Source of the DNA: Chloroflexota bacterium
GTDB lineage: Bacteria > Chloroflexota > Anaerolineae > 4572-78
Assembly: GCA_024278725.1 (NCBI GenBank)
Contig: JAJRSQ010000237.1
Location: 1-43,640 of the forward strand
Reading direction: 5' to 3'
DNA length: 43,640 nucleotides
In this document: piece by piece, positions 9,711 to 41,816 of the stretch
Layout of the letters: every line of letters begins with the position of its first letter
How positions within the stretch are numbered: the first letter of the stretch is position 1
Position numbers and translations under genes: made by a program
The notes under the pieces: model-generated
What the model saw: the letters and a program-made list of their open reading frames with translations, nothing else
Database searches by the model: none
What the model was told of the DNA's origin: nothing

Positions 9711-10494
9711 GATTGGATACCCTTTTGGGGTGGGGGTTGATTTCCCAAACCCGCCGCAACCCTTCCAGCGTCAGCCAGGGGTTGATATATTGAATCACGT
9801 CGGTCTCGGCGGCGATGGCGCGCGCCAGCCCGCCCGTGGCAATCACCTTCATTTCCGCGCCCAATTCCTGCCGGAAACGCGCCACCATCCCTTCCACCAT
9901 ACCGACATACCCGAACAGCAATCCGCTCTGGATGGCGTGAATGGTGTTTTTGCCGATGACGCTCGGCGGGGCGAGTAATTCCACGCGGGGCAGTTTCGCC
10001 GTGCGCTGAAAGAGCGCATCGGCGGCGATGTTAATGCCGGGGGTGATGGCGCCGCCCAAATAATCGCCATTCGCGGCAATGGCATCGAAGGTGGTTGCCG
10101 TGCCGAAATCCACGATGCACGCGGGACCGCCGTACAGATGATGCACCGCCAGCGCATCAATGATGCGGTCGGCGCCCACCCCCGCCGGGTTATCCACCCG
10201 CAACGAAATGCCGGTGTGAATATCGTGCGTGACCAGCAGCGGCGTTTTCTCAAAATACCGTTCGCACATGCGGGTGTAGATTTTTGCCAGCGGCGGAACC
10301 ACACTCGCCATGCAAATGCCGTCAATATCGGCGGGGGAAAGGTTGACGTGCCGGAAAAAACCCAGCACCATCATCCCGTATTCGTCGGGCATGCGGTTGC
10401 GGTCGGTTTTGATGCGCCAATGATGCCGCAACATTTTTCCATCATACAACCCGATGAGCGTGTTGGTATTGCCCACATCAATCGTTAAAATCAT
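9691..10494 (-). CDS. coaX: Type III pantothenate kinase
   Basis: 267 aa. It contains MILTIDVGNTNTLIGLY...GADRI...IVDFGTATTFD...ATGG, the ASKHA-fold CoaX motifs. It overlaps the coaBC start by 20 nt. Confidence 0.93.
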   Translation of the reverse strand: MILTIDVGNTNTLIGLYDGKMLRHHWRIKTDRNRMPDEYGMMVLGFFRHVNLSPADIDGICMASVVPPLAKIYTRMCERYFEKTPLLVTHDIHTGISLRVDNPAGVGADRIIDALAVHHLYGGPACIVDFGTATTFDAIAANGDYLGGAITPGINIAADALFQRTAKLPRVELLAPPSVIGKNTIHAIQSGLLFGYVGMVEGMVARFRQELGAEMKVIATGGLARAIAAETDVIQYINPWLTLEGLRRVWEINPHPKRVSNHDEFEE

Positions 10495-11698
10495 CGTTAT
10501 CCCATTGTCCTTCTGCTAAAAGTTCATCCGGCGGCAGGGTGAAAAAGAAGGTCGTCCCGTGCCCCGGCTCGCTTTCCGCCCAGATTTTCCCGCCGTGCGC
10601 CTCCACAATGTGCCGGGCAATCGCCAGCCCCAACCCCGTGCCGGAATGTCTTTCGGAGACAAATTCCCCGCGCGAGCGGGCATCATCCACTTTGAAAAAA
10701 CGCTCAAAAACGCGCGTCTGCGCCTCCGGCGACATCCCGATGCCGGTAGCGGCAACTGCCACACAGACCATCGCGGGGTCGTCGGTATCCCCCAGCCGGA
10801 TGGTCACGCTGCCGGTGTCGGTGAATTTTATGGCGTTGTGGATGAGGTTGGTCAGCACCCGCGCCAACATCGCTTTGTCCGCCAAAATTCGTACTTTGGG
10901 GGGCAGGGCGATTTCCAAAGCAATATTTTTCCGCGCGGCTTGTTCGTGCAATCGCTTCACAACTTTTTTGACCTGTTTGGTCAAATTGCACCCGACCAGT
11001 TTCAGCGGCATGCGTCCGCTTTCGATGAGGCTCAAATCCATCAATTCCTGATTAATCTGCATCAGGGCATCGGTTTCGTCCAAAATTTTCTCGGTCAGCA
11101 CCGCCGCCATCTTTTTGTCCGATAATGCCCCGTTCAGCAACGTTTCGGCGATTAATTGGATACCCGAAATCGGGGTGCGTAAATCGTGGGAAATATTTGC
11201 CACCAAATCGCGGCGCGCCCGCCCGAGGCGTTGCAATTCGCTCACGTCTCGGAAGAGGAGGAGCAACTGGGGCGGCTCGGCGTTTTCAACGGTGGTCATC
11301 TTCACCCGAAAAACGCGGTCGTTCAAATTTAGCTGGTGGGTCATGCTCAATGAACCGGCGAGCGTCTGTTCCGCCACATCCACCAATTGATAGTCATGCG
11401 TCCACTGCAACAGGGTCGCCCCGGCTTCCGGCGCGCCGAAAACCGCTTCGGCAACGGGATTGGTCGTCAGCACTCGCAATTGCGCATCGGTGAAAACCAC
11501 CCCGTGCGTTTCCGCCGCCAAAAGGGTTTGATGCTGCGCGGCGAGCGCGCCGAAACGGCGGGTCAATGTCTGTTGGGTCTGCGTCGCTCGCCGATAAGCG
11601 TCGTCCGCCCGCCGGCGGGCGCGTTTTTCGGCGGCATATCGCCAACCGAGCGCGCCCGCGAGCATCAGCGCGGCGGCAAAAAGGATCCAGGGGGTCAT
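10478..11698 (-). CDS. Sensor histidine kinase (membrane, PAS-like, HisKA, HATPase)
   Basis: 406 aa with an N-terminal TM segment. H-box ANISHDLRTPISGI, N-box LTNLIHNAIKF, G-boxes ATGIGM and GTGLGLAI. It overlaps coaX by 17 nt and the response regulator by 4 nt. Confidence 0.9.
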   Translation of the reverse strand: MTPWILFAAALMLAGALGWRYAAEKRARRRADDAYRRATQTQQTLTRRFGALAAQHQTLLAAETHGVVFTDAQLRVLTTNPVAEAVFGAPEAGATLLQWTHDYQLVDVAEQTLAGSLSMTHQLNLNDRVFRVKMTTVENAEPPQLLLLFRDVSELQRLGRARRDLVANISHDLRTPISGIQLIAETLLNGALSDKKMAAVLTEKILDETDALMQINQELMDLSLIESGRMPLKLVGCNLTKQVKKVVKRLHEQAARKNIALEIALPPKVRILADKAMLARVLTNLIHNAIKFTDTGSVTIRLGDTDDPAMVCVAVAATGIGMSPEAQTRVFERFFKVDDARSRGEFVSERHSGTGLGLAIARHIVEAHGGKIWAESEPGHGTTFFFTLPPDELLAEGQWDNDDFND

Positions 11699-12378
11699 GC
11701 TGCCTCAAAGCGGTAGCCGATACCGCGCACGGTTAAAATGTGTTCGGGATGGGAGGGGTCGGTTTCGATTTTTTCCCGCAACCAGCGGATATGGACATCC
11801 ACGGTGCGGGTTCCGCCGGTATAATCGTAGCCCCAAACTTTGGTCAACAGCAAATCTCTGGACAGTACCGCCCCCTGATTGCGGACAAGTTCCGCCAGCA
11901 AATCGAACTCTTTGTGGCTGAGCGAGAGGGTTTCATCGCCCCGTTGCACCTGCCGCGACACAAAATCAATCGTCAGTCCACCGGCGGTCATTTTGCTGGC
12001 AATCCCCGCCGAGGGTTTTCGGCGCAAAACAACGCGAATGCGCGCCAGCAATTCGCCCAAACTGAAGGGCTTGGTGATGTAGTCGTCCGCGCCGGAATCC
12101 AACCCGATGATTTTGTCCATTTCGCCGGAACGCGCGGTGAGCAAAATGACGGGCGTTTCCACCCCTTCGCGGCGCAAAATCCGGCACACTGAAAGCCCGT
12201 CAAGTTCGGGGAGCATCACATCCAGAATTATCAAATCCAGTTTTTTGTCACGCCCCAATTCCAAGCCGGTTTTGCCGTCGGTGGCAGTCACCAGTTTGTA
12301 CCCTTCGTTCCGCAAATTATATGAAAGGGTTTCGATGAGCGTGTTATCATCTTCAACTAATAAAATCCGTACAGCCAT
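11695..12378 (-). CDS. OmpR/PhoB-family DNA-binding response regulator
   Basis: 227 aa. The receiver is RILLVEDD...DLIILDVMLPELDG...ITKPF. The winged-helix output is LSHKEFDLLAELVRNQGAVLSRDLLLTKVWGYDY...RTVDVHIRWLREKIE...ILTVRGIGYRF. Confidence 0.93.
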   Translation of the reverse strand: MAVRILLVEDDNTLIETLSYNLRNEGYKLVTATDGKTGLELGRDKKLDLIILDVMLPELDGLSVCRILRREGVETPVILLTARSGEMDKIIGLDSGADDYITKPFSLGELLARIRVVLRRKPSAGIASKMTAGGLTIDFVSRQVQRGDETLSLSHKEFDLLAELVRNQGAVLSRDLLLTKVWGYDYTGGTRTVDVHIRWLREKIETDPSHPEHILTVRGIGYRFEAA

Positions 12379-15631: not shown

Positions 15632-18337
<2,706 letters not shown>

Positions 18338-18386
18338 ACCTGTCTCCTTAAAATTGTATCGAATTTGGTGTTTCAAATTTCGGGGT

Positions 18387-25978: not shown

Positions 25979-26626
25979 TTATTTGGATGCCAAAAATGAA
26001 TCGAGATTGTGCCGCACCGCGTACGCGGTTGCTTCGGAACGGTTGGAAAGTTGTAGCTTGCTGAAGATACTGCTGACATAATTTCGCACCGTTCCTTCCC
26101 CCAAATGGAGGGTGTGGGCGATTTCTTTGTTCGTTTTGCCCTGCGCAATCAGCGCCAGCACCCGCAATTCCCGGTCGGTCAAATCGGTGAAGGCTTCCGA
26201 GCGGTTGGTTTCCCGCAAACGGGCAAAAACCTGCCCCGTGACGCTGGGGTCGAGCATTGAATCGCCGCGCAAAACGGTTTCGATGGCGCGCACCAAATCA
26301 TCGTTGCCCACCTGTTTCAGCACGTAGCCCGCCGCCCCCGCCGAGATGGCGTTGAACAACAGTTCATCCTCCGCGAATGAAGTCAGCACAATCACTTTGG
26401 TGTGCGGATGCTGTTTGACAATTTCGCGGCAGGCATCAATACCTGAACCATCACCCAAACGGATGTCCAGCACAACAATATCGGGGTTGTGCGCGGCAGC
26501 CTGCGCGATGGCATCCACCACCGTTCCCGCTTCTGCCACAATTTCCCAGTCTTCATGGCGCGCCAAAAGGCTTTTTAACCCAAAACGCACAACTTCATGG
26601 TCGTCCACAACCATTATCCGAACCAC
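25979..26626 (-). CDS. NarL/FixJ (LuxR)-family response regulator
   Basis: The receiver is RIMVVDDHEVVRFGL...DIVVLDIRLGDGSG...VIVLTSF...GYVLK. The LuxR HTH is LTDRELRVLALIAQGKTNKEIAHTLHLGEGTVRNYVSSIFSKL. I place the start at GTG 26626, with GGGAGG 6 nt upstream. The track ORF's 34 extra codons (to 26728) look spurious. Confidence 0.9.
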   Translation of the reverse strand: MVRIMVVDDHEVVRFGLKSLLARHEDWEIVAEAGTVVDAIAQAAAHNPDIVVLDIRLGDGSGIDACREIVKQHPHTKVIVLTSFAEDELLFNAISAGAAGYVLKQVGNDDLVRAIETVLRGDSMLDPSVTGQVFARLRETNRSEAFTDLTDRELRVLALIAQGKTNKEIAHTLHLGEGTVRNYVSSIFSKLQLSNRSEATAYAVRHNLDSFLASK

Positions 26627-26785
26627 ACCACACCTCCCGATGTTTTGTCTGCGAAAATCGCCCTTAAAGCACGAATGATTATTCGATTGTACAATGTGTT
26701 GGAATGAAGGGCAAAATTTTGTTGGCATTTCCGATTTTTTTTAAATTATGCTACACTACCCTGCGGTGTTTGTGAAGGAAATGTT

Positions 26786-28411
26786 ATGGGTGAACATACG
26801 AAGCAAAAAATCTTGAAGCAGCTCTCGAAGTTGCGCCCCACCGTGGGTGCGCCCACCGATTTACACCGCGCGGAACGCAGTCAGGTCATCGAAGCGTTGC
26901 TGGTGAGCGAAACTCGGCTGGCGGATGTGCTGAATATGGCGCACGAAGCCATCATTTCCATTGATGCCGAGCAGCGCATCATTCTGTTCAACAAAGGGGC
27001 AGAAACCATCTTCGGGTATAATGCGGATGAAATTCTGGGGCAGCCGTTGGATGTGCTGTTACCCGAAGATTCCGCCCACACCCACCGGCAATATCTGGTT
27101 GAGTTTGCCGCAGCGCCGGAGATGTCCCGGCTGATGAGCGAGCGTCGCCCCATCCACGGGCGGCGCAAAGACGGCAGTATCTTCCCCGCAGAAGCATCCA
27201 TTTCAAAGCTGGATAATCCACGCATCTTCACCGTGGTGCTGCGCGATGTCACCAATCGCTACCGCGCCCAACAGGAACGGGAATACCTCATCCAACAGTT
27301 GCGCGCACTGGATGACGCCACCCGCGCCATCACCGCACAGTTGTCGCTGGAGCAGGTTTTGCAGACCATCGCCAATACGGCGCAATCGCTGATGAACGTC
27401 CACATTGCGGCGCTCGGTGTGCATGATGAAGACGAATATTTCTCGCAGTTCATCACTGCCGGCACAACGCCGAAAGTCGCGGAAGCCTTTGAAGCATCCG
27501 CGTACGGGCGAAAATTGATGGGACGCCTGTTTTACAAAGGCGAGCCTGTGATGCTGAACCGGATTTCCACGCCCACCGGCGAGACGGGTTTGCCCGCCGA
27601 TTTTCCTCCCATCCGCAATTTGCTCGGCGTGCCGATTGCCGCCAAAGGGCAATTAATTGGGGCGCTGTATCTGGCAAATAGAAAGTACGGCGAGGCGTTC
27701 ACCGATACCGACCAGCTTATTTTGCAGCGGTTGGCGGTTCACGCCGCCATTGCCATTGAGAACGCGCGGGCATATGAGCAAACGCAGCGGTTAGCCGTTT
27801 TGGAAGAGCGGGAACGGTTCGCGCGGGATTTACACGACGGCATCATTCAATCCATTTATGCCGTCGGATTGATGCTTGACCAGGTGAAGGCGGATATCCC
27901 CGCCGAATTCGACGCCGCACAAAAGCAAATCGCGCTGACGCTGGATAATCTGGCGCGCGTGATTCAGGATATCCGCAACTATATTTTCGACCTTCGCCCG
28001 CAAGCCATCAAAGATAACGGGCTGAAAAATCGCCTCGACGGGTTGATTCGGGAGGTGTGCGCCAATGCGAACATCCCCATTCACGCTGAGATTCCCACCG
28101 ACATCGGGGAGCATCTGAGTGACGAACAAGCCAATCACCTGTTCCACATTTGTCATGAGGCGCTGGCAAACGCGGTACGGCACGCGGAGCCTTCACACAT
28201 CACCATTTCATTGCAACGCAAAGAAGGCGTTGTGACATTGAACGTCGCGGACGATGGCATCGGATTTGTGATGCCCTCAAAAGTCAAGCCCGGACATCGC
28301 GGGCTGGCGAATATGCGTTCGCGGGCGTTCCAATGCGGTGCGCGCATGGAAATCCAAAGCATCCCCAACAAAGGTACCAACGTCACAGTTCAACTCAAGG
28401 AGAGACCATGA
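26786..28411 (+). CDS. PAS-GAF sensor histidine kinase (HisKA_3 / NarX-LiaS class)
   Basis: 541 aa and apparently cytoplasmic (no TM seen). The PAS domain reads AIISIDAEQRIILFNKGAETIFGY...GRRKDGSIFPAE. The GAF domain reads SLEQVLQTIANTAQSLMNVHIAALGV...LGVPIAAKGQLIGALYLANR. HisKA_3 H-box ERERFARDLHDGIIQSIY. The HATPase region reads HICHEALANAVRHA...VADDGIGF...GLANMRSRA. It is divergent from its LuxR-type response regulator. Confidence 0.9.
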   Translation: MGEHTKQKILKQLSKLRPTVGAPTDLHRAERSQVIEALLVSETRLADVLNMAHEAIISIDAEQRIILFNKGAETIFGYNADEILGQPLDVLLPEDSAHTHRQYLVEFAAAPEMSRLMSERRPIHGRRKDGSIFPAEASISKLDNPRIFTVVLRDVTNRYRAQQEREYLIQQLRALDDATRAITAQLSLEQVLQTIANTAQSLMNVHIAALGVHDEDEYFSQFITAGTTPKVAEAFEASAYGRKLMGRLFYKGEPVMLNRISTPTGETGLPADFPPIRNLLGVPIAAKGQLIGALYLANRKYGEAFTDTDQLILQRLAVHAAIAIENARAYEQTQRLAVLEERERFARDLHDGIIQSIYAVGLMLDQVKADIPAEFDAAQKQIALTLDNLARVIQDIRNYIFDLRPQAIKDNGLKNRLDGLIREVCANANIPIHAEIPTDIGEHLSDEQANHLFHICHEALANAVRHAEPSHITISLQRKEGVVTLNVADDGIGFVMPSKVKPGHRGLANMRSRAFQCGARMEIQSIPNKGTNVTVQLKERP

Positions 28412-29311: not shown

Positions 29312-30607
29312 CTACATATATCCCAAATTGTGCGCGGCGTGCGCCAGCTCATCCCTGAATTTCGGATGGGCGATGTTGATGAGCGCCTGCGTGCGCTGAC
29401 GAACCGTTTTCCCGTGCAAATTCGCCACACCGTATTCCGTCACCACATAATGCACATCGTTGCGGGTGGTAATCACCCCCGCCCCTTCGGTGAGGGTGGG
29501 CACAATGCGGCTGATGGCGTCCCCTTTGGCGGTAGACAGAAACGCGATGATGGGCAGCCCGCCCTTTGAGCGCGCCGCGCCGCGAATGAAATCAATCTGC
29601 CCGCCCACACCGCTGTAAAATCGCGTGCCGATGGAATCGGCGCAGACCTGCCCCGTCAAATCAATCTGAATGGCGGAATTGATGGCAACCATCTTTTCGT
29701 TTTGAGCAATGTTGAACGGGTCGTTCACGTAATCGCTGGGGTGCATTTCAATGATGGGATTATTGTGGATGAATTTGTAGAGCCGTTTTGAACCGAACAA
29801 AAAGCCGGAGATGATTTTTCCGGGGTGGAAAGTTTTCCGGTTGCACGTGATGACACCCGCTTCAAACATATCAATCACGCCATCGGAAAAAAGCTCGGTG
29901 TGGATGCCCAAATCGCGGTGATTGCCCAAATTTTGCAACACCGCATCGGGGATGCTGCCGATGCCCATTTGCAGAGTCGCCCCGTCGGGGATCATCTCCG
30001 CAATGTGTTCCCCCACCCGCAAATGCAGTTCCGAGCTGCCGCCCTGCGGCGCTTCCGGGATGGGATAATCCACTTCCACAATTTGGGTCAACCGGCTGAC
30101 GTGAATGAAGCTATCGCCGAGCGTGCGGGGCATTTGACGGTTGATTTCCGCGATGACCACCCTCGCCGCACCGGCGGCGGGTTTAGTGGAACCGACCTCC
30201 ACGCCAAAGCTGCAAAAGCCGTGTTCGTCGGGCGGGGAAAGTGAAATCAACGACACATCGAGCGGCAGGATGCCGTTGCGGAAGAGCGCCGGGACTTCCG
30301 ACAAAAATATCGGGGTGAAATCGGCGCGTCCGTCGTTGACGGCTTTTCGCACCGCCGGTCCGATGAACAACGCATTGTGCCGAAACGATGCGCTGTATTT
30401 TTCATCCACATACGGCGCATCGGCAAAGGTGAGGATGTGCGTGATTTCCACATCCCGCAGGTGGGGCGCTTGTCGCACCAGCGCATCAATCAGCACTTTC
30501 GGCACACCGGCGCCCCCGCCAATGTACACCCGGTTGCCCGACTGCACCGCCGAAAGCGCGGCATCGGCATCGGTCACTTTTTTACGATATATCGCTTCCC
30601 AATTCAT
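29312..30607 (-). CDS. Acetyl-CoA hydrolase/transferase family protein (4-hydroxybutyrate/succinyl-CoA:acetate CoA-transferase-like)
   Basis: 431 aa. The N-terminus AVQSGNRVYIGGGAGVPKVLIDAL and the segments DVSLISLSPPDEHGFCSFG and ELFSDGV...INSAIQIDLTGQVCADS...SGVGGQIDFIRGA are typical of the family. Confidence 0.88.
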   Translation of the reverse strand: MNWEAIYRKKVTDADAALSAVQSGNRVYIGGGAGVPKVLIDALVRQAPHLRDVEITHILTFADAPYVDEKYSASFRHNALFIGPAVRKAVNDGRADFTPIFLSEVPALFRNGILPLDVSLISLSPPDEHGFCSFGVEVGSTKPAAGAARVVIAEINRQMPRTLGDSFIHVSRLTQIVEVDYPIPEAPQGGSSELHLRVGEHIAEMIPDGATLQMGIGSIPDAVLQNLGNHRDLGIHTELFSDGVIDMFEAGVITCNRKTFHPGKIISGFLFGSKRLYKFIHNNPIIEMHPSDYVNDPFNIAQNEKMVAINSAIQIDLTGQVCADSIGTRFYSGVGGQIDFIRGAARSKGGLPIIAFLSTAKGDAISRIVPTLTEGAGVITTRNDVHYVVTEYGVANLHGKTVRQRTQALINIAHPKFRDELAHAAHNLGYM

Positions 30608-32972: not shown

Positions 32973-35900
32973 TCAGTCGATGGCAGCCATCTGTTCATAT
33001 TTGTGCCAATGCGCGTTGACGGCATCCTGCGCCGCTGCCAGCAATTCATCCGCTTTCGCCGGGTTCGTTTTCACCAGGATTTTATACCGCGCTTCGTTGT
33101 AGATGTAATCTTTCAACGGACGTTTCGGCTTTTTGGAGTCGAGTTTCAATGGCGGCTTGCCTTCCTGATGACGGCGCGGGTCGTAGCGGTAGAGGGGCCA
33201 GTAGCCCGTTTCCACCGCCAGTTTTGTTTGGATGTGCCCCTGACCGCTGGCAAGGTCGATGCCGTGGGCGATACAGGGTGAATAGGCGATAATCAGCGAG
33301 GGACCGTCGTAGGCTTCGGCTTCCATGATGGCTTTCACGGTCTGCGCATCGTTGGCGCCCATCGCAATTTGCGCCACGTACACATACCCGTAGCTCATCG
33401 CCATCATCCCCAGGTCTTTTTTGATGGTCGGTTTCCCACCGGCGGCGAATTTCGCCACCGCGGCGAGCGGGGTCGCTTTGGATGCCTGCCCGCCGGTATT
33501 GGAATAAACTTCGGTGTCCAGCACCAGCACGTTCACATTGCGTCCGCTGGCGAGCACATGGTCTACCCCGCCGTAACCGATGTCGTATGCCCAGCCGTCG
33601 CCGCCCATAATCCAGACGCTCTTCTTCACCAGCATATCGGCTAAACTGAGCAGGTCGCGGGCTTTCACGCCGTTGTTTCCGGCGAGAATATCTTTCAGTT
33701 GCGCCACCCGCTCGCGTTGCGCGCTGATGCCCGCTTCGTCCGACTGGTCGGCGCTGAGCAGCGCATCCGCCAAATCCGCGCCGATGTCGTCGCGCAGCAG
33801 AGTCACCAATTCGCGGGCGTATTCGGTTTGTTTGTCAATGGTCAGCCGCATGCCCAGCCCGAATTCGGCATTGTCTTCAAAGAGCGAGTTGCTCCACGCG
33901 GGACCGCGTCCCTCTTTGTTGAATGTCCACGGGGTGGTGGGCAGATTGCCGCCGTAAATGCTGGAACAGCCGGTCGCATTGGCAACCACAGCGCGGTCGC
34001 CGAAGAGTTGCGTGACCAGTTTGACGTAGGGGGTTTCCCCGCAACCCGCGCACGCGCCGGAAAATTCAAAGAGGGGTTCGAGGAGTTGGATATTCTTCAC
34101 GTTGGCGAAATTCACCGAATCGGTGCGGGAGATTTCCGGCAAATCGAGGAAGAAGCTCCAGTTTGCGCGTTCGGTTTCCCGCAACGGCAATTGCGGCTCC
34201 ATATTGATGGCTTTGCGCCCCACCTGCGTTTTATCCTTCACGGGACATGCTTCCACACAGAGGGTACAGCCGGTGCAGTCTTCCACCGCCACTTGCAGGG
34301 TGTATTTCATCCCTTTAAATTCTTTCCAACGGGCGTCAACCGCTTTGAAGGTTTCGGGTGCGCCTTCGAGCGCGGTTTCATCATACACTTTCGAGCGGAT
34401 GACCGCGTGCGGACACACCAGCACACACTTTCCACACTGAATACAGAGGTCTTCATCCCACACCGGGGCTTCCAGCGCAATGTTTCGTTTTTCCCATTGG
34501 GTGGTTCCCGAAGGATATGTGCCGTCAATGGGCAACATGCTGACCGGAATTTCATCCCCTCTGCCCTGCATCATTTTTGCGGTGACGGTTTTGACAAATT
34601 CCGGCGCGGCGTCCGGCACGGTTGCCGGTTTTTCGATGGTGCTGGTTGCCTGCGCGGGCACGTCAATTTTGTGCAGATGCGAAAGGGCGGCATCAACGGC
34701 GGCGAAGTTTTTCTGTACCACTGCCTCGCCCCGTTTGCCGTAAGTTTTCTTGATGGCGGTTTTGATGCGGTCAATCGCTTCATCTTCCGGCAACACCCCG
34801 CTGATGGCGAAGAAGCAGGTTTGCATGATGGTGTTGATGCGCACGCCCATACCCGTTTCTTTCGCCACTTCATAGGCGTCAATCGCGTAGAATTTCAGAT
34901 TTTTGCTGATGATGGCTTCCTGAATTGTGCGCGGCAGATGTCCCCAAACCTCATCGGCGTGATAAGGGCTGTTCAGGAGGAAGGTTGCCCCCTCTTCCGC
35001 GTAATCGAGCAGGTCGTACCGTTCCAGGAAAACGAATTGATGCACGGCGATGAAGTTCGCCTTTTTGATGAGATATGTGCTGTGGATGGGGCGCGACCCG
35101 AATCGAAGGTGCGAAATGGTCTGCGCACCGGCTTTTCGGGAGTCGTAAACAAAATAGCCCTGAGCGTAATTGTCCGTACCTTCCCCGATGATTTTGATGG
35201 AGTTTTTGTTCGCGCCAACCGTGCCGTCGGAACCGAGTCCCCAGAACATCGCCCGCACAATATCATCCGGCTCAATGTTGAAGTCGCGGTCAAATTCGAT
35301 GCTGGTGTTCGTCACATCGTCAATAATGCCGACGGTGAAATGGTTTTTCGGTTTGGCTTTGGTCATTTCATCGAATACCCCTTTGACCATCGCGGGGGTG
35401 AATTCTTTGGATGACAGTCCGTATCGCCCACCGATGATGCGCGGCATCCGGGTGAAGGGGGTTGTGCCATCGGCAAAACCTTCGCTGATGGTGGTGATGA
35501 CATCCTGATAGAGGGGTTCGCCGGCGGCGCCCGGTTCTTTGGTGCGGTCTAACACGGCGATGGTTTTGGTGGTGGCGGGCAGTGCGCCCAGGAAATGTTC
35601 GGCGGAGAAGGGACGGTAGAGCCGAACTTTCAGCATCCCGATTTTTTCGCCCCGCGCCGTGAGGTAATTCACCGTTTCCTCGGCGGTTTCCGCGCCGGAG
35701 CCCATCAGAATGATCACCCGCTCGGCGTCGGGCGCACCAATGTAGTCGAACAGGTGGTATTGGCGTCCCACAATTTTGGCGAATTTGTCCATCGCTTTTT
35801 GGACAATGCCGGGGGTTTTGATGTAAAACGGATTGACCGTTTCGCGCGCTTGGAAGAAAACGTCGGGGTTCTGCGCCGTACCGCGAATGGCGGGATGGTC

Positions 35901-36542
35901 GGGCGATAATCCGCGGGCGCGGTGGGCGCGGACGAGGTCATCGTCAATCATCGCCCGCATATCGTCGTGTGTCAGTTCCTCCACTTTCATAATTTCGTGC
36001 GACGTGCGGAAACCGTCGAACACGTGCAAAAACGGCACGCGCGATTCCAGCGTGGCAGCCTGAGAAATCAGCGCGAAGTCCATCACTTCCTGCACCGATG
36101 AGGCGAACAGCATGGCAAAGCCGGTGCTGCGGGCAGCCATCACATCGCTGTGGTCGCCAAAGATGGACAAAGCCTGCGCCGCCACCGACCGCGCCGCAAT
36201 GTGGAAAACAGTGCTGGTCAGTTCACCGGCAATCTTGTACATATTGGGTATCATCAACAGCAACCCTTGCGATGCGGTGAAGGTAGTGGTGAGCGAGCCG
36301 GTGGTCAATGCGCCGTGGACTGCCCCGGCGGCGCCGCCTTCCGCTTGCATTTCCACAACAGTGGGGACAGTTCCCCAGATATTTGTTGCATGCTTGGCAG
36401 ATTTTTCGTCCGCCATTTCTCCCATCGGAGACGAGGGCGTAATCGGGTAGATGGCAATCACTTCATTTGTGGCGTGCGCCACGTGTGCCACCGCAGTGTT
36501 ACCGTCAATGGTAACCATTCTTCGTTGTGTTCCGTTAGCCAT
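32973..36542 (-). CDS. nifJ: Pyruvate:ferredoxin (flavodoxin) oxidoreductase
   Basis: 1189 aa of single-chain PFOR. It starts MVTIDGNTAVAHVAHATNEVIAIYPITPSSPMGE. The ferredoxin domain carries CIQCGKCVLVCPH and CTGCTLCVEACP. The TPP domain includes GCGETPY and GGDGWAYDIGYGG. Confidence 0.97.
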   Translation of the reverse strand: MANGTQRRMVTIDGNTAVAHVAHATNEVIAIYPITPSSPMGEMADEKSAKHATNIWGTVPTVVEMQAEGGAAGAVHGALTTGSLTTTFTASQGLLLMIPNMYKIAGELTSTVFHIAARSVAAQALSIFGDHSDVMAARSTGFAMLFASSVQEVMDFALISQAATLESRVPFLHVFDGFRTSHEIMKVEELTHDDMRAMIDDDLVRAHRARGLSPDHPAIRGTAQNPDVFFQARETVNPFYIKTPGIVQKAMDKFAKIVGRQYHLFDYIGAPDAERVIILMGSGAETAEETVNYLTARGEKIGMLKVRLYRPFSAEHFLGALPATTKTIAVLDRTKEPGAAGEPLYQDVITTISEGFADGTTPFTRMPRIIGGRYGLSSKEFTPAMVKGVFDEMTKAKPKNHFTVGIIDDVTNTSIEFDRDFNIEPDDIVRAMFWGLGSDGTVGANKNSIKIIGEGTDNYAQGYFVYDSRKAGAQTISHLRFGSRPIHSTYLIKKANFIAVHQFVFLERYDLLDYAEEGATFLLNSPYHADEVWGHLPRTIQEAIISKNLKFYAIDAYEVAKETGMGVRINTIMQTCFFAISGVLPEDEAIDRIKTAIKKTYGKRGEAVVQKNFAAVDAALSHLHKIDVPAQATSTIEKPATVPDAAPEFVKTVTAKMMQGRGDEIPVSMLPIDGTYPSGTTQWEKRNIALEAPVWDEDLCIQCGKCVLVCPHAVIRSKVYDETALEGAPETFKAVDARWKEFKGMKYTLQVAVEDCTGCTLCVEACPVKDKTQVGRKAINMEPQLPLRETERANWSFFLDLPEISRTDSVNFANVKNIQLLEPLFEFSGACAGCGETPYVKLVTQLFGDRAVVANATGCSSIYGGNLPTTPWTFNKEGRGPAWSNSLFEDNAEFGLGMRLTIDKQTEYARELVTLLRDDIGADLADALLSADQSDEAGISAQRERVAQLKDILAGNNGVKARDLLSLADMLVKKSVWIMGGDGWAYDIGYGGVDHVLASGRNVNVLVLDTEVYSNTGGQASKATPLAAVAKFAAGGKPTIKKDLGMMAMSYGYVYVAQIAMGANDAQTVKAIMEAEAYDGPSLIIAYSPCIAHGIDLASGQGHIQTKLAVETGYWPLYRYDPRRHQEGKPPLKLDSKKPKRPLKDYIYNEARYKILVKTNPAKADELLAAAQDAVNAHWHKYEQMAAID

Positions 36543-37061: not shown

Positions 37062-37976
37062 TTAATTCTCCGAATGTGTTGAGGGTTCCCCCGCCCCCGG
37101 TGTGAACGGGTGCATATCTTTTCGGACGTAGATGAACCAGTAAACCAGCCCAACCATCAACGCCCCACCGATGATGTTGCCGATAGTGACCGGCAATAGG
37201 TTGCCAATTACGATGTTTTTCCATGTTATATCACCATAATCATCGGCGGTTTTGCCGATGGCGTTCCAGAAGGAACCGGGGGCGCTCACTTTCACCAGCC
37301 ATCCGATTGACAGGAAATACATATTGGCAACACTGTGTTCAAATCCGGCGGCAACAAAGGCGGTAATCGGGAAGATGATTGCCAATATTTTATCGGTGAC
37401 GGTGCGCGCGCTGAAGCACAACCACACTGCCAAACATACTAACGCATTACACAGTATACCCAACGCTATCGCCTGTACAAAACCGAGATGTACTTTCCCG
37501 TTGGCAATGTTCAAAATATTTAACCCGATGACCCCACCACCAAAGGTGAACTGCTTGGTGTACAGCATCAGCACTGCCGTACCAATGGAACCGATGAAAT
37601 TCCCCAGATAAACAATGCCCCAATTGCGTAACAGTTGCTTGGTGGACACTTTTTTGTCCGCCCACGCCATCACAATCAGGTTGTTTCCGGTGAATAGTTC
37701 CGCGCCGGCGACAATGACCAAAATCAGCCCTAGGCTGAACACCAACCCGCCTAGCAACTTCGTCACTCCGAAGGTTAGATTGCCGCTGGCACCGGCGGTG
37801 ACGGTTGTGGCAAAAACCGCCCCCATACCGATGAATGCGCCTGCCAAAACCGCCAGCGCGAACGTATTCCAAAATCCCATCCCTGCTTTTTTCTGACCCA
37901 CAACTTCGGCTTTGAGCGCCATATCAGGTGGTAAAAACGAATCAAGTGTATTATTTGTTGGAATTGAAACTGCCAT
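37062..37976 (-). CDS. Formate/nitrite transporter (FNT) family channel
   Basis: About 304 aa from the ATG at 37976, with GGAGGG 7 nt upstream. The FNT N-terminus is LPPDMALKAEVVGQKKAGMGFWNTFALAVLAGAFIGMGAVF. Also present are LVIVAGAELFTGN and FEHSVANMY (the conserved His region). Confidence 0.88.
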   Translation of the reverse strand: MAVSIPTNNTLDSFLPPDMALKAEVVGQKKAGMGFWNTFALAVLAGAFIGMGAVFATTVTAGASGNLTFGVTKLLGGLVFSLGLILVIVAGAELFTGNNLIVMAWADKKVSTKQLLRNWGIVYLGNFIGSIGTAVLMLYTKQFTFGGGVIGLNILNIANGKVHLGFVQAIALGILCNALVCLAVWLCFSARTVTDKILAIIFPITAFVAAGFEHSVANMYFLSIGWLVKVSAPGSFWNAIGKTADDYGDITWKNIVIGNLLPVTIGNIIGGALMVGLVYWFIYVRKDMHPFTPGAGEPSTHSEN

Positions 37977-38153
37977 TAAAACACCCTCCAATGTAAAAAT
38001 ATGGTTTATAGTGCGTATATCGTTATATTGTGAAGTATATCACGCCTTACTGCAAAAAAACAATGACAAACATCCTGATTTCTCAAGACATTTGTCACAT
38101 TCTTTCCACGGGGAATATTTACTATAAATTCACGAATCTTTACGCAAACTTTA

Positions 38154-38439: not shown

Positions 38440-38898
38440 TCATCGTTGAATATATTCATCCAGATACCGCTGAAACTTCGCCAGCTTCTCCGTCGGAACA
38501 TCATTTTTCGGAATGGCGAAAATGAACCCTTCCGAATGAAACAACACAAAATTCCCCGCAACAACCTGCCACCCTTTAAATTCATCCCAACCGAATTTAT
38601 TTTCGCCCAATTTGGTTTTCACGGTGATGCCATTGCCGGAAAGTGTGTACCGCGTCGGCAATAATTGTGGGTTGCCGTCGCTGCGCGTTTGGCGGAGAAT
38701 GTTGAAAATTCCCAAAAACACATAAAACAGATACGGCAACCATGCCACAATCAACAGCCCGTAATTCCCGGTGCTGAGGGTGTATGCCGTGACCACCCCG
38801 CTCGCAATCAAATAAATATACAGCCCCTTATTTTGAAAAAACAGCAAGAGTCCCAAACGGGTTACGGTGCTTTTGGGAAGGGTAACATTAATGTTCAT
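38440..38898 (-). CDS. YcxB-like membrane protein
   Basis: 152 aa with two N-terminal TM helices (LGLLLFFQN...IYLIASGVVTAY / LLIVAWLPYLFYVFLGIF). The YcxB-type C-terminal domain reads YTLSGNGITVKT...FGWDEFKGWQVVAGNFVLFHSEGFIFAIPKNDVP. GC content looks lower than in the neighbouring genes. It is the last gene of the sensor-exonuclease operon. Confidence 0.65.
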   Translation of the reverse strand: MNINVTLPKSTVTRLGLLLFFQNKGLYIYLIASGVVTAYTLSTGNYGLLIVAWLPYLFYVFLGIFNILRQTRSDGNPQLLPTRYTLSGNGITVKTKLGENKFGWDEFKGWQVVAGNFVLFHSEGFIFAIPKNDVPTEKLAKFQRYLDEYIQR

Positions 38899-38919: not shown

Positions 38920-41031
38920 TTAATATTTTAAGCGGGCGTAAAATGTTTCTTTGGAGGCTTGCAGGGCATCCGCCAAAGTGATGATGCCCCGCTCTGCCAG
39001 TAGCGGCAGCATCTTCAAAAAAATATCGCCCGTCAATAACGCATCGCCCAGAGCGGTGTGCCTGCCGACAATATCAATCCCCAGCCGTTCCGCAATGGCT
39101 TCCAGACTGTGGTCTGATTGACTGGGGTGTACCACCGCCGACAACAGCAGCGTGTCCAGCACCGGATTGGTGAATCGAATATCGGTGCGGCTCTCTTTTT
39201 GCTGGAAAAGCCGCATATCGAATGCCGCATTGTGCCCCACCAGCACCGTATCCTCCACGAAATGATGGAAGGCGGGCAAAACCTGTTCAATGGTGGGATG
39301 CCCTGCCAGCATATCGGTGGAAATACCGTGAATATTGGTTGCCATCGGCGAAACTGCCCGCCGGGGGTCTACCAGTTGGTCGAAAATTTCCTGCCGCAGA
39401 AGTCGCCCATTCACGATGCGCGCCGCTCCAATCGAGATAATCTCATCGGCGACGGGGTCAAGTCCGGTGGTCTCCGTGTCGAACACGGTGTACGTCAGTT
39501 CCGAAAGTTTCTGCGATTGCAGACTCCCGATTTTCCCGGCGCGCCGGAATAAATCGAAATCATAATATTCGGGACGACTGCTCTGCACCACAGGCATCCG
39601 GCGGGCGGGCGGCGGGTCTGTGGTGGGTAGCAACATGCGAAAATACGCCACGCCGGTATCCACATCCCGCTGATACCATACTTCGCCGCCGTGGTATTCC
39701 GCAATTTCACGAATGGTGAGCGACACGCCGTCACTGTTGCTGTCCAGAATCTGGTTCTGCCACGACCACATCGTGTCGGCATCAACACGGCTGCTTTCCC
39801 AAATAATATCAAATGCCGCCAGCCGCCCGGCTTGTTTCAAATTTATCTGCACGGCATCAACATCGAAACTCTTTTTGAGCCGTCGCACCAAAAAAGTTGC
39901 CGCCTGCACCACCAAATACCCGTCCACCTGCAACCACAGCGACGGTTCCGGCGCGGCGATAGACCGGGTGGACACCTTCAGTTTGTCTTCAAACCGACGT
40001 TGAATCGCCCACAGCAAATCGCTGCCGGGGATTTTTTCCAATTGCCATTTGGCGCGAATGTCGGAGGCGTATTCAGTGGTCAATTCATCCAGCCGCGCGC
40101 TGAGCGCCAGCGATTCTTCCGAAATGACGTGGTACAGTTGGTTCAATTTTTCCTGCCGGATATTGGGGTACGCCTCAATGGTTTCAATGGCGGCGCGGAT
40201 GTTGGCAATCGGCGAGCGCACCCCTTCCGTCAAAGCGCGGAGCAGAATATCGCGCCGGCTGCTGCTTTTGCTGTGCTGGGTGGTATCTTCCAGTGTCAGC
40301 ACAAAGCCATTAATTGCCTGCGAATTTTGCAAAATCGGGGCGATAGCCACCCGCAATAACTGCCCGTTGGTCGCCGAAGTCACAAAACGGGAGATGACAT
40401 ATGCGCTGTGTTTCTCGGTGCGGTAGGTGAGTTCCTCCAGCGCATGGGTGATGACGCTCCGGTCGAGCACGCCAAAAATCGAGCGTCCCAGCCCCACCAG
40501 CCCCGCGGCGGATGAAGACGTCCAGCTTTCCGGCGTGTGGCTCAACAATTCCTTCGCCAGATTATTGTACAGCAGAATTTGCCCCTCCACATTGCAGACC
40601 AGCACGCCTTCCGTCAATTCCGACATCAGCGCCACGAGCCGTTTTTTCTCCGCTTCCAGCTCATCGTGCGCGCGCTCAATTTCGGCTGCCTGATTTTCCA
40701 GCACGGTCTGATACCGTTCGGCAAACGCATTGATTGCTCCCGCCAGCTTGCGCATCTCCACCGGTCCGTCAACATCGGTGCGCCAGGCGGGATTCACGGT
40801 GGTAATCACCCTCATATCCTCCGCCAGCCGCTTCGCGCTCACAATGTACGATTGGAAAAACAGGCTGATGAAAAGGCTGAGCACCATCAATATTAAAATT
40901 GCCCCGGCAATAACCAGGATTAATTGTTCTTTCCCCAACATGGGAATTGCGATGAAGGCGACCAGCATCCCCAACAGAAACAGAAAGATGCTGCCCAGCG
41001 AAAAGAACATCTCAAACTTTTGTCGTTCCAT
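38920..41031 (-). CDS. Membrane HAMP-PAS protein with a degenerate histidine-kinase core fused to a DEDDh (DnaQ/RNase T-like) 3'-5' exonuclease
   Basis: 703 aa. It has two TM helices with almost no external loop, a HAMP domain and a coiled coil, then PAS (LMSELTEGVLVCNVEGQILLYNNLAKELL...INGFVLTLEDTT). The DHp-like helix LLRALTEGVRSPIANIRAAIETI has Glu where the phospho-His sits (compare SHELRTPLTSI). The CA-like fold lacks the N and G boxes but keeps IREIAEYHGGEVWYQRDVDTGVAYFRMLLP. The exonuclease motifs are ExoI VFDTETTGLDP, ExoII LVGHNAAFDMRL and ExoIII GRHTALGDALLTG. Confidence 0.8.
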   Translation of the reverse strand: MERQKFEMFFSLGSIFLFLLGMLVAFIAIPMLGKEQLILVIAGAILILMVLSLFISLFFQSYIVSAKRLAEDMRVITTVNPAWRTDVDGPVEMRKLAGAINAFAERYQTVLENQAAEIERAHDELEAEKKRLVALMSELTEGVLVCNVEGQILLYNNLAKELLSHTPESWTSSSAAGLVGLGRSIFGVLDRSVITHALEELTYRTEKHSAYVISRFVTSATNGQLLRVAIAPILQNSQAINGFVLTLEDTTQHSKSSSRRDILLRALTEGVRSPIANIRAAIETIEAYPNIRQEKLNQLYHVISEESLALSARLDELTTEYASDIRAKWQLEKIPGSDLLWAIQRRFEDKLKVSTRSIAAPEPSLWLQVDGYLVVQAATFLVRRLKKSFDVDAVQINLKQAGRLAAFDIIWESSRVDADTMWSWQNQILDSNSDGVSLTIREIAEYHGGEVWYQRDVDTGVAYFRMLLPTTDPPPARRMPVVQSSRPEYYDFDLFRRAGKIGSLQSQKLSELTYTVFDTETTGLDPVADEIISIGAARIVNGRLLRQEIFDQLVDPRRAVSPMATNIHGISTDMLAGHPTIEQVLPAFHHFVEDTVLVGHNAAFDMRLFQQKESRTDIRFTNPVLDTLLLSAVVHPSQSDHSLEAIAERLGIDIVGRHTALGDALLTGDIFLKMLPLLAERGIITLADALQASKETFYARLKY

Positions 41032-41435: not shown

Positions 41436-41816
41436 TTATCTGAAAACTGAACCCAAAATCAACCCGCCGATAGCGCCATAAACCGCCCCCACCAGCGCGC
41501 CCATCAGCCATTGACCGACATCCCCCGTGGACATTCCCAGCGCCAACCCGGCAAGCGCGCCGACGACGCCCAACACCGCGACGCCGGTGGAAATTCCGCC
41601 ACGCCAGCCGATGAAGCCCCCCGCCGCCGCCCACAGCGCGGCAATCGGCAGGGTGAGCCGCAACGGTCCAAGCATATCAAACGATTCGGTTTTGAAGAGG
41701 AGTGCAGTGGCAAATGGGAAAACTGCCGTTGACAAACTATTTCCCCCGGCAAAGCCGAGCACGGCACTCAGGAAAATTCGCAATTTCGGGTTGTTGTTGA
41801 GCATATGTGTCTCCAT
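41436..41816 (-). CDS. Glycine-zipper-rich small membrane protein (hypothetical)
   Basis: 126 aa (or from MLNNNPK) with about 4 TM segments rich in GxxxG/A: LWAAAGGFIGWRGGISTGVAVLGVVGALAGLALGMSTG...GALVGAVYGAIGGLILGSVF. It lies between the kinase and the response regulator, with gaps of 15 and 37 nt. Confidence 0.55.
   Translation of the reverse strand: METHMLNNNPKLRIFLSAVLGFAGGNSLSTAVFPFATALLFKTESFDMLGPLRLTLPIAALWAAAGGFIGWRGGISTGVAVLGVVGALAGLALGMSTGDVGQWLMGALVGAVYGAIGGLILGSVFR

Follow-up and report, generated by a model that had tools for sequence, protein, structure and literature searches.

In the 43,640-nucleotide stretch of DNA analyzed here (contig JAJRSQ010000237.1 of the Chloroflexota bacterium assembly GCA_024278725.1; hereafter the window), a single open reading frame (ORF) at 38920..41031 on the minus strand, whose coordinates were verified by translation, encodes a predicted membrane protein of 703 amino acids (aa) in which a dead histidine kinase core is joined to an intact nuclease. 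Sequence, profile and structure comparisons establish it as a sensor protein of the dimer type that descends from a histidine kinase and carries, in covalent fusion, a DnaQ/PolC-type DEDDh 3'-5' exonuclease with its full catalytic set. Two transmembrane (TM) helices are followed by a HAMP-like region, a PAS domain, a degenerate dimerization and histidine phosphotransfer (DHp) hairpin, a domain resembling the catalytic and ATP-binding (CA) domain of kinases, a linker and the exonuclease. Pseudo-kinases and DnaQ-like exonucleases are known kinds of proteins; the fusion built from them is real, widespread and selectively maintained. Hundreds of full-length homologues, together with ratios of non-synonymous to synonymous substitution rates (dN/dS) of about 0.03-0.1, exclude a chance ORF, and a decaying pseudogene was rejected on the grounds of the same ratios.

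The kinase ancestry of residues ~40-472 was recovered by HMMER, HH-suite and AlphaFold/Foldseek alike, all of which placed this part of the protein on sensor histidine kinases. The NCBIfam model of WalK covers residues 42-349 (E 1.7e-16), and a phmmer search against the sequences of the Protein Data Bank (PDB) matched VicK (4i5s) to residues 39-401 (E 6e-9). When a profile of 116 family sequences was compared with the PDB, VicK was found at 8.5e-15 and ThkA at 4e-8 over residues 133-456, next to WalK and HK853, the C-terminal match of the latter falling on the CA-like region. The profile-profile alignment (hhalign) of the fusion family with the family of the neighboring sensor kinase, here called the cognate kinase, reached a probability of 96% (E 3e-9), its 209 columns running through both DHp and CA. 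In the AlphaFold model of the 703-aa protein (pLDDT 75.9), helices at residues 3-31 and 34-78 (TM) and at 91-137 are followed by a five-stranded PAS domain (142-249), the DHp helices 251-287 and 293-326, an alpha/beta domain (332-471) and the exonuclease (514-702), and its top Foldseek matches are WalK, VicK, YF1-type, ThkA and HK853 kinases (E 1e-18 to 1e-9). A Pfam scan returned RNase_T at residues 516-671 (E 3.6e-35) and otherwise weak PAS matches only, with no match of HisKA, HATPase_c or HAMP to the protein.

The first-pass annotation, aligned by eye, had claimed that the phospho-acceptor histidine is replaced by glutamate, and both alignments agree with it. In the HMMER alignment with VicK (4i5s), LTEGVRSPI of the fusion pairs with VSHELRTPL, so that Glu269 occupies the histidine position, and the same pairing was obtained by hhalign with the cognate kinase family. 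The loss of the G1 and G2 boxes was likewise read correctly, as the G1 aspartate of the cognate kinase aligns to W411 of the fusion and GTGLGL to the degenerate DGVSLT. Both N-box asparagines are gone as well, their counterparts being F380 and R384; the alignment by eye had been shifted by one residue here, without consequence. What remains of the CA fold is its C-terminal segment (HGGEVW...FRMLLP), retained as had been stated, and the conserved residues of the CA-like domain are W411, H447, W452 and R465. Next to the histidine, HisKA proteins carry the phosphatase motif E/DxxT/N. This motif is not present in the fusion, which reads E269-G-V-R-S, with Gly at +1 in 102/116 and Ala or Ser at +4 in the 116 close homologues. 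These residues exclude that the core acts as a kinase or as a GHKL enzyme that binds ATP; with the phospho-acceptor histidine, all ATP-binding motifs and E/DxxT/N lost, the fusion protein phosphorylates nothing and probably dephosphorylates nothing either.

Homologues were compared in three sets. The close set consists of 115 full-length proteins, 47-98% identical, which together with the query give 116 sequences and whose source names, where given, are Anaerolineae or Chloroflexota; the broader set contains 89 family sequences from species-representative genomes plus the query (90); and cluster representatives were obtained by querying 1.84 billion proteins with nothing but the core, the best 150 of 604 being used for residue counts. 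No histidine was found at the phospho-acceptor column in any of the 116 close, 90 broader and 150 cluster-representative sequences. In the close set Glu269, R272, R279, A281 and E283 are invariant, W411 is present in 115/116 and no asparagine occurs at the N-box positions. The histidine position of the broader set is occupied by E in 55 sequences, Q in 14, D in 12, A and T in three each and R, S and K in one each, and R272, W411, H447 and R465 are 96-99% conserved (86-89 of 90). Among the best 150 cluster representatives, E was counted 109 times at this position, Q 11, D five, A, T and K four times each and V once. The suggestion that glutamate mimics a phosphorylated state thus gains little, since fixation of Glu is limited to the close, Chloroflexota-named clade (116/116), Q, A, T, K or R being found elsewhere; the range of E, Q, D, A, T, K and R across the family argues that a negative charge is not required at this position. 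In the alignment of homologues, which had been proposed as a check, the loss of the histidine is conserved, the N-box asparagines are missing throughout the close set and DEDDh is under purifying selection; the glutamate itself is not conserved family-wide.

A hidden catalytic histidine four positions before the canonical one (HxLTEG) was considered and rejected, because the window protein has Arg265 there. Among the 150 cluster representatives this position holds Q in 55, R in 42 and H in 12. About one third of the betaproteobacterial homologues (loci L015, L028, L030, L043 and others) have the -4 histidine, most other members Gln or Arg, and the residue may have a clade-specific phosphotransfer role in Betaproteobacteria. 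A conserved histidine elsewhere in the DHp combined with a functional ATP lid, as expected of an ordinary hybrid kinase, was not what the alignments returned: the -4 histidine is confined to a minority and the ATP-binding motifs are absent. The search with the core only found 604 proteins at E <= 1e-3, the best 150 of which all align to the family core, indicating that this core is far diverged from ordinary kinases. The exonuclease motif was present in 101/150 of these best representatives. The other 49 are for the most part probable fragments, since they end at or inside the core or show apparent frameshifts; some of them, ~320-365 aa long and terminating immediately behind the CA-like domain, might represent a true stand-alone form.

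The catalytic set of the exonuclease had been annotated as complete, and this is what we found: D518 and E520 in ExoI, D605 in ExoII and H658 and D663 in ExoIII are all present, and the five residues are invariant in 116/116 close and 90/90 broader homologues, with no decay of the motifs. The exonuclease structure of PolC (2p1j) was matched at E 1e-30 by sequence and 1e-43 by profile. Foldseek placed the domain on PolC and DnaQ epsilon exonuclease structures at a root-mean-square deviation of ~2 A and 31-38% identity, in keeping with an RNase H-like exonuclease fold. Its best relatives are DNA exonucleases, namely PolC, epsilon, Cas2-DEDDh and DinG, a likeness that does not fix DNA or RNA as the substrate of the predicted enzyme. 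Identity with the replicative Pol III epsilon subunit was rejected, since the scores of 106.5 with NCBIfam NF004316 and 100.6 with TIGR01406 fall below the cut-offs of 196 and 222.7, respectively. A component of anti-phage defense was also rejected, given that PADLOC yielded domain-level DEDDh matches only and that the neighbors are metabolic and signaling genes.

Selection on the gene was estimated with the NG86 method, pooled over 64 close pairs, as the ratios over all pairs were saturated (~0.4-1). By segment, dN/dS amounts to 0.19 for TM, 0.13 for HAMP, 0.09 for PAS, 0.14 for DHp, 0.11 for the CA-like domain, 0.15 for the linker and 0.07 for the exonuclease. Between the window gene and a 98% identical relative, dN is 0.012 and dS 0.40, and the DHp is free of non-synonymous change. 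These values indicate that the dead kinase core is kept by selection and is not decaying. As the core is catalytically dead yet strongly conserved, the role proposed for it in the first-pass annotation, that of a repurposed module for regulation, dimerization or docking, is a reasonable reading.

Relatives of the fusion were found 572 times in species-representative genomes, and the best 80 of the 572 all cover ~88-100% of the query. They occur in Chloroflexota and in many Betaproteobacteria (Thauera, Azoarcus, Zoogloea, Accumulibacter, Dechloromonas, Cupriavidus necator and Noviherbaspirillum), further in Thiothrix, Competibacter, Pseudomonas spp. and one metagenome-assembled genome each of Desulfobacteraceae and Thermoleophilia. 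The copy on plasmid 1 of Paracoccus denitrificans PD1222 (WP_011751332.1, 706 aa) is 41% identical over 650 residues. In the databases the homologues are named "DNA polymerase III subunit epsilon", "exonuclease domain-containing protein" or "PAS domain-containing protein", and a curated model specific for the fusion family does not exist.

The N-terminal half corresponds to the earlier description of two TM helices nearly without a loop, followed by HAMP-like and PAS regions, as seen from hydrophobicity, the AlphaFold model and the alignments with VicK and WalK. An extracytoplasmic domain is absent between the helices, and the TM segment is the least conserved part of the protein. With the family profile, the PAS domain was matched by the WalK PAS structures 4mn5 (E 2e-8) and 7duc (E 1e-7); it is the second most conserved region of the fusion, with 28/130 columns at 95% or more. 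The model of the linker has low confidence, with pLDDT <50 at residues 479-483 and means of 10-residue blocks from 59 to 79 across 471-510. Although predicted as coil, this linker contains the most conserved stretch of the whole protein, SRPEYYDFDLF, whose Y/F-D-F-D/S-L core lies ~22 residues ahead of ExoI. None of the architectural variants (Paracoccus, Ruegeria, Rhizobium, Agrobacterium and Aestuarium) has lost this core. The stretch could serve as a peptide that binds a partner; as a speculation, YDFDL(F) is loosely like the beta-clamp-binding pentapeptide QL[SD]LF, of which the leading Gln is missing.

The fusion gene is part of a conserved cluster, in which it mostly follows directly on a gene for a stand-alone receiver. 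The two genes overlap in the window and, according to gene calls or annotations, in five relatives (L001, L002, L003, L007 and L088), and the receivers have D10, D53 and K105 in 82/82 cases, T/S83 and Y102 being conserved. The cognate kinase runs past the end of the window and is complete, with 924 aa, in the 98%-identical relative L007. Its N-terminal 460 residues are related to SSF/SLC5 symporters (hhalign probability 92.5%, E 4.8e-7, 328 columns), and the kinase belongs to the architecture class of CbrA and CrbS. Pfam SSF did not match this N-terminal domain, and no Pfam match was obtained between the transporter and kinase domains, the place of STAC, at which no comparison was specifically aimed. 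The kinase is not a hybrid, the receiver has no output domain, and neither a DNA-binding nor any other output domain exists in the pathway. In L007 the gene order is acetyl-CoA synthetase, DUF294 protein (cNMP-binding/CBS/nucleotidyltransferase), 924-aa kinase, small TM protein, receiver, fusion gene and YcxB; the DUF294 gene of the window locus lies outside the window. The usual cluster consists of a small ORF, the SLC5-like kinase, the receiver and the fusion gene together with DUF294, a DUF4212-SSF symporter and acetyl-CoA synthetase.

Neighborhoods were counted in 84 loci of several phyla that hold 86 family genes; for the kinase, a locus had to offer 3.5 kb or more of upstream flank. The receiver is located immediately upstream of the fusion gene in 75/86 and the SLC5-like kinase upstream in 64/76, while DUF294 was found in the locus in 61/86, an SSF symporter, usually with DUF4212, in 56/86 and acetyl-CoA synthetase in 40/86. 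The same operon is annotated in Paracoccus denitrificans PD1222, with gene overlaps of 4-11 nucleotides (nt). The cognate kinases of Chloroflexota-named and Proteobacteria-named loci share 55-71% identity, which suggests horizontal transfer of the whole cluster. The cluster of receiver, fusion and DUF294 is repeated in tandem within a single locus in L021 and in L052, so that some Betaproteobacteria have paralogous duplicates of the module.

Of the kinases compared, it is the cognate one whose transmitter the pseudo-kinase core specifically resembles by descent. A hidden Markov model (HMM) of the core matched 73/74 cognate kinases at ~44 bits, and among the non-cognate kinase ORFs of the same loci it gave one match, a weak one (14 bits). 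As non-cognate controls from the same genome, two further two-component pairs of the window were used, one of a HisKA kinase and an OmpR-type regulator (10478-12378, minus strand), the other of a PAS-GAF-HisKA_3 kinase and a LuxR-type regulator (25979-28411); a second HisKA kinase of the window, besides the cognate one, scored 18 bits with the core HMM.

Six variants from alphaproteobacterial plasmids, each in a cluster with DUF294, were compared for their architecture. Proteins of Ruegeria (479 aa), Rhizobium (562 aa) and Agrobacterium (593 aa) have a TM-HAMP-PAS-exonuclease layout without the DHp/CA core, and their clusters have no receiver gene. Forms from Aestuarium (695 aa) and Paracoccus AK26 (662 aa) contain the core and are adjacent to a receiver, with no kinase in the cluster, and P. 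denitrificans has the full operon of kinase, receiver and fusion. Core and receiver thus co-occur in 6/6 variants, three having both and three neither. One to three small genes separate the exonuclease gene from DUF294 in the alphaproteobacterial clusters. A conserved membrane protein of 162-174 aa, without a Pfam family, is encoded between the two (L089:5700-6218, L090:4410-4934, L093:6664-7152, L094:7410-7934); in the three core-less clusters it takes the place of the receiver, a membrane protein of 172 aa preceding the exonuclease gene there, and in Aestuarium a receiver-like gene comes after it.

Table 1. Features of the fusion gene and its upstream neighbors in the window, with the basis of each assignment.
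Feature	Coordinates	Strand	Basis or remark
Pseudo-histidine-kinase/DEDDh exonuclease fusion, membrane, 703 aa	38920..41031	-	Stop codon 38920-38922; full-length homologues of 41-98% identity
DnaQ/PolC-type DEDDh 3'-5' exonuclease domain, aa 512-703	38923..39498	-	Pfam RNase_T 3.6e-35; PolC 2p1j
Linker, aa 473-511	39499..39615	-	AlphaFold: coil except for the 4-residue helix 502-505
SRPEYYDFDLF motif, aa 485-495	39547..39579	-	Mean top-residue frequency 0.95
CA-like alpha/beta domain without ATP-binding motifs, aa 328-472	39616..40050	-	hhalign; ThkA profile match 133-456; HK853 C-terminal match
Degenerate DHp helical hairpin, aa 251-327; H-box LTEGVRSPIANIR	40051..40281	-	VicK and cognate-kinase alignments; AlphaFold helices 251-287, 293-326
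Glu269 codon, at the phospho-acceptor His position	40225..40227	-	VicK and cognate-kinase alignments; translation
PAS domain, aa 138-250	40282..40620	-	Weak Pfam PAS match; WalK PAS 4mn5, 7duc; five-stranded sheet
HAMP-like helix-connector-helix and signaling helix, aa 60-137	40621..40854	-	Aligns to the VicK/WalK HAMP region; AlphaFold helices 34-78, 91-137
Two TM helices, aa 9-59	40855..41007	-	5-residue polar loop LGKEQ by hydrophobicity; 2-residue turn in the AlphaFold model
Stand-alone receiver, 128 aa	41012..41398	-	Pfam Response_reg 1e-30; 3' end overlaps fusion start by 20 nt
Small membrane protein, 126 aa, glycine-zipper-like	41436..41816	-	Between kinase and receiver
Cognate sensor histidine kinase, C-terminal 602 aa	41832..43640, runs past window end	-	Intact H-box, HisKA, HATPase_c

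On balance, we consider it somewhat probable that the receiver docks on the dead DHp of the fusion protein and gates the exonuclease, in the way in which the Caulobacter crescentus pseudokinase DivL senses the phospho-receiver DivK through its DHp, with the information flow reversed (PMC4211667). This view draws on the overlapping and co-conserved receiver gene, on the lack of another output of the pathway, on the co-occurrence of core and receiver in the six variants and on the relationship of the core to the cognate kinase. The fusion protein would then act as the output effector of the two-component pathway of its operon. The SLC5-like kinase would report the availability or transport of carboxylates of the acetate type and phosphorylate the stand-alone receiver, which in turn would bind the kinase-like DHp surface of the pseudo-kinase as in the reverse signaling of DivK and DivL. 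Docking and the protein's own HAMP-PAS input would together alter the geometry of the dimer and thereby activate or silence the exonuclease tethered to it at the membrane.

Judging by context, the exonuclease seems to correspond, in fused form, to the enzyme that accompanies DUF294 in the CrbS/R acetate regulon (PP_0353 type), and we would speculate that the partnership with DUF294 points to an add/remove cycle on a 3'-OH. The exonuclease and the GlnD-like nucleotidyltransferase DUF294 might plausibly remove and add nucleotides on a 3'-OH substrate that tunes short-chain carboxylate assimilation. It is possible, if on our estimate doubtful, that the terminal output of this two-component pathway is nucleolytic and not transcriptional, such that the phospho-receiver binds the dead kinase and gates the DEDDh exonuclease, which with DUF294 would form a cycle of addition and removal at the 3' terminus of an RNA, DNA or oligonucleotide signal, and this signal would control the assimilation of acetate and short-chain carboxylates.

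Several observations lend the docking of the receiver no support or weigh against it. In the 10 members that have no receiver next to them, conservation of the first DHp helix is not reduced (identity to consensus 0.69 vs 0.67, p = 0.43), though their partners may be encoded elsewhere. Mutual information between receiver columns and columns of the pseudo-kinase or kinase, corrected for the average product (APC) and calculated from 68 triples, showed no enrichment of the DHp, the top pairs lying over all domains in a sample that is small and dominated by phylogeny. About 13% of the family genes have neither a receiver nor a kinase nearby, for example in Accumulibacter and Cupriavidus, and the very strong conservation of the PAS domain suggests that the protein also, or instead, senses a ligand of its own. 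The substrate of the exonuclease and its functional link to DUF294 rest on gene neighborhood, and the link to PP_0353 on context and the Pfam family reported in PMC9927547.

Because the conservation and covariation tests of the DHp gave docking no support, the main rival is an autonomous nuclease controlled by PAS, in which the HAMP-PAS part alone senses a membrane or cytoplasmic cue, the dead DHp and CA serve as a scaffold for dimerization and transmission, and kinase and receiver signal elsewhere or the receiver acts as a phosphate sink. The genes without nearby receiver or kinase are in line with it, as are the second rank of PAS in conservation, together with its low dN/dS, and the existence of TM-HAMP-PAS-exonuclease variants with neither core nor receiver. 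The very high conservation of PAS speaks for at least a share of such control. As the full account we nevertheless hold it to be rather unlikely, since it leaves unexplained the co-occurrence of the core with the overlapping receiver (75/86; 6/6 variants), the closeness of the core to precisely the cognate kinase, and the lack of any other output domain of the two-component pair. More improbable still is an accessory regulator that heterodimerizes with or scaffolds the SLC5-like kinase, or sequesters the receiver, and whose exonuclease is a constitutively active passenger at a membrane complex. The similarity of the core to the DHp-CA of the cognate kinase and the origin of both membrane proteins from one operon would fit this explanation; however, core-receiver pairs persist in Aestuarium and Paracoccus AK26, where the cluster has no SLC5-like kinase, and complete family members keep the exonuclease fusion, as counted among the best representatives. 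An ordinary kinase or phosphotransferase with its histidine elsewhere in the DHp (Spo0B/ChpT-like), or a replicative Pol III epsilon, has hardly any chance of being right: the -4 histidine of the betaproteobacterial subset and the epsilon name used by the sources would favor it, but Arg265 in the window protein and Q or R in most members, the absent ATP-binding motifs, DnaQ equivalog scores far under the cut-offs and a membrane-anchored protein in a cluster for carboxylate utilization, not in a replication context, all speak against it.

Further genes around the fusion were recorded as side observations. The 126-aa glycine-zipper-like protein, which has no family assignment, was found in 6/13 of the Chloroflexota-, Anaerolineae-, Caldilineaceae- or Chloroflexaceae-named loci that keep the kinase-receiver cluster; it is 31-39% identical in distant loci and absent from proteobacterial clusters. 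An ORF of 60-80 aa without a Pfam family usually lies directly before the SLC5-like kinase gene, often overlapping it (L006:6097-6297, L088:4190-4435 and equivalents), and we take it to be reminiscent of the small CbrX ORF upstream of cbrA. A YcxB-like gene (38440-38898, minus strand) lies 21 nt downstream of the fusion gene and may be on the same transcript; YcxB also comes directly after the fusion gene in L007, and in L009 ~2.4 kb further downstream, after acetyl-CoA synthetase and a small membrane protein. The neighboring genes of the window are centered on acetate and pyruvate and include, all on the minus strand, an acetyl-CoA hydrolase/transferase (29312-30607; Pfam AcetylCoA_hydro and AcetylCoA_hyd_C), a pyruvate:ferredoxin oxidoreductase named by eye from its translation (32973-36542), a FocA-type formate/nitrite transporter (37062-37991) and an aconitase (15632-18376). 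ScpC, described as an acetate:succinate CoA transferase, is a target of CrbS/R (PMC9927547).

The outputs of two-component systems are overwhelmingly transcription factors, cyclic-nucleotide enzymes, chemotaxis or kinase partners. In our literature searches neither a nuclease switched by a two-component pathway nor a fusion of a pseudo-kinase with an exonuclease was found described. If the receiver does gate the fusion protein, a degenerate kinase hard-wired to a nuclease and a receiver would represent a new type of two-component output and a second, independent example of DivL-like reverse signaling, and a nucleolytic output would explain the DUF294-exonuclease pair of the CrbS/R regulon. The fused form says that the exonuclease activity is worth post-translational regulation by the same sensory system, which provides a handle on an open problem of the acetate regulon, and the family is present in tractable organisms such as Paracoccus denitrificans PD1222, Cupriavidus necator, Thauera and Azoarcus. 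The database name "DNA polymerase III subunit epsilon" is misleading for these proteins.

Among known systems, WalK and VicK provide the best sequence and structure matches for residues ~40-472, and both function as active kinases in which the His, N, G1 and G2 boxes are present; neither contains a nuclease. Spo0B and ChpT consist of a DHp-like four-helix bundle and a CA-like domain that no longer binds ATP, dock single-domain receivers, retain the phospho-accepting histidine and relay phosphate. As far as its sequence tells, the fusion is like them in its DHp-like bundle and a CA-like domain without ATP binding, but its family has no conserved histidine and carries an exonuclease. DivL is also a PAS-DHp-CA protein with an H-box lacking the phospho-acceptor histidine, and as for DivL and DivK, a single-domain receiver is the conserved genomic partner of the fusion, known here from gene context. 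In contrast to the Glu, Gln or Asp of the fusion family, DivL has Tyr at the histidine position, and its output is the allosteric control of the kinase CckA, with no exonuclease, whereas the fusion carries the enzyme itself. With the exonuclease domains of DnaQ and PolC (2p1j, 1j53), the CRISPR-associated DEDDh proteins and the N-terminal exonuclease of DinG, the fusion shares the fold and the DEDDh residues. Unlike these, it belongs to no polymerase, helicase or Cas2 and has a membrane sensor attached, and the Y-D-F-D/S-L motif upstream of ExoI sets its family apart from the DnaQ/PolC-type domains.

In Pseudomonas, the SLC5/STAC kinase CrbS (MxtR) and CrbR (ErdR) activate acs, actP and an operon of DUF294 and an RNase_T exonuclease (PP_0354/PP_0353; pflu5625), both genes of which are among the strongest CrbS/R-dependent targets; their mutants have little phenotype and their function is unexplained (PMC9927547, PMC5715377, bioRxiv 10.64898/2026.09.07.749794). 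As with PP_0353 and PP_0354, the DEDDh exonuclease of the fusion family is found with DUF294 in clusters of the acs/actP type under a sensor kinase of the SLC5 type, a likeness that rests on this context and on the Pfam family, PP_0353 being described as an RNase_T-family protein (PMC9927547). The Pseudomonas pair differs from the fusion in being controlled transcriptionally by a DNA-binding regulator. In the fusion family, the exonuclease has a TM-HAMP-PAS-pseudo-kinase module attached to it and is linked with a stand-alone receiver, which implies control at the post-translational level.

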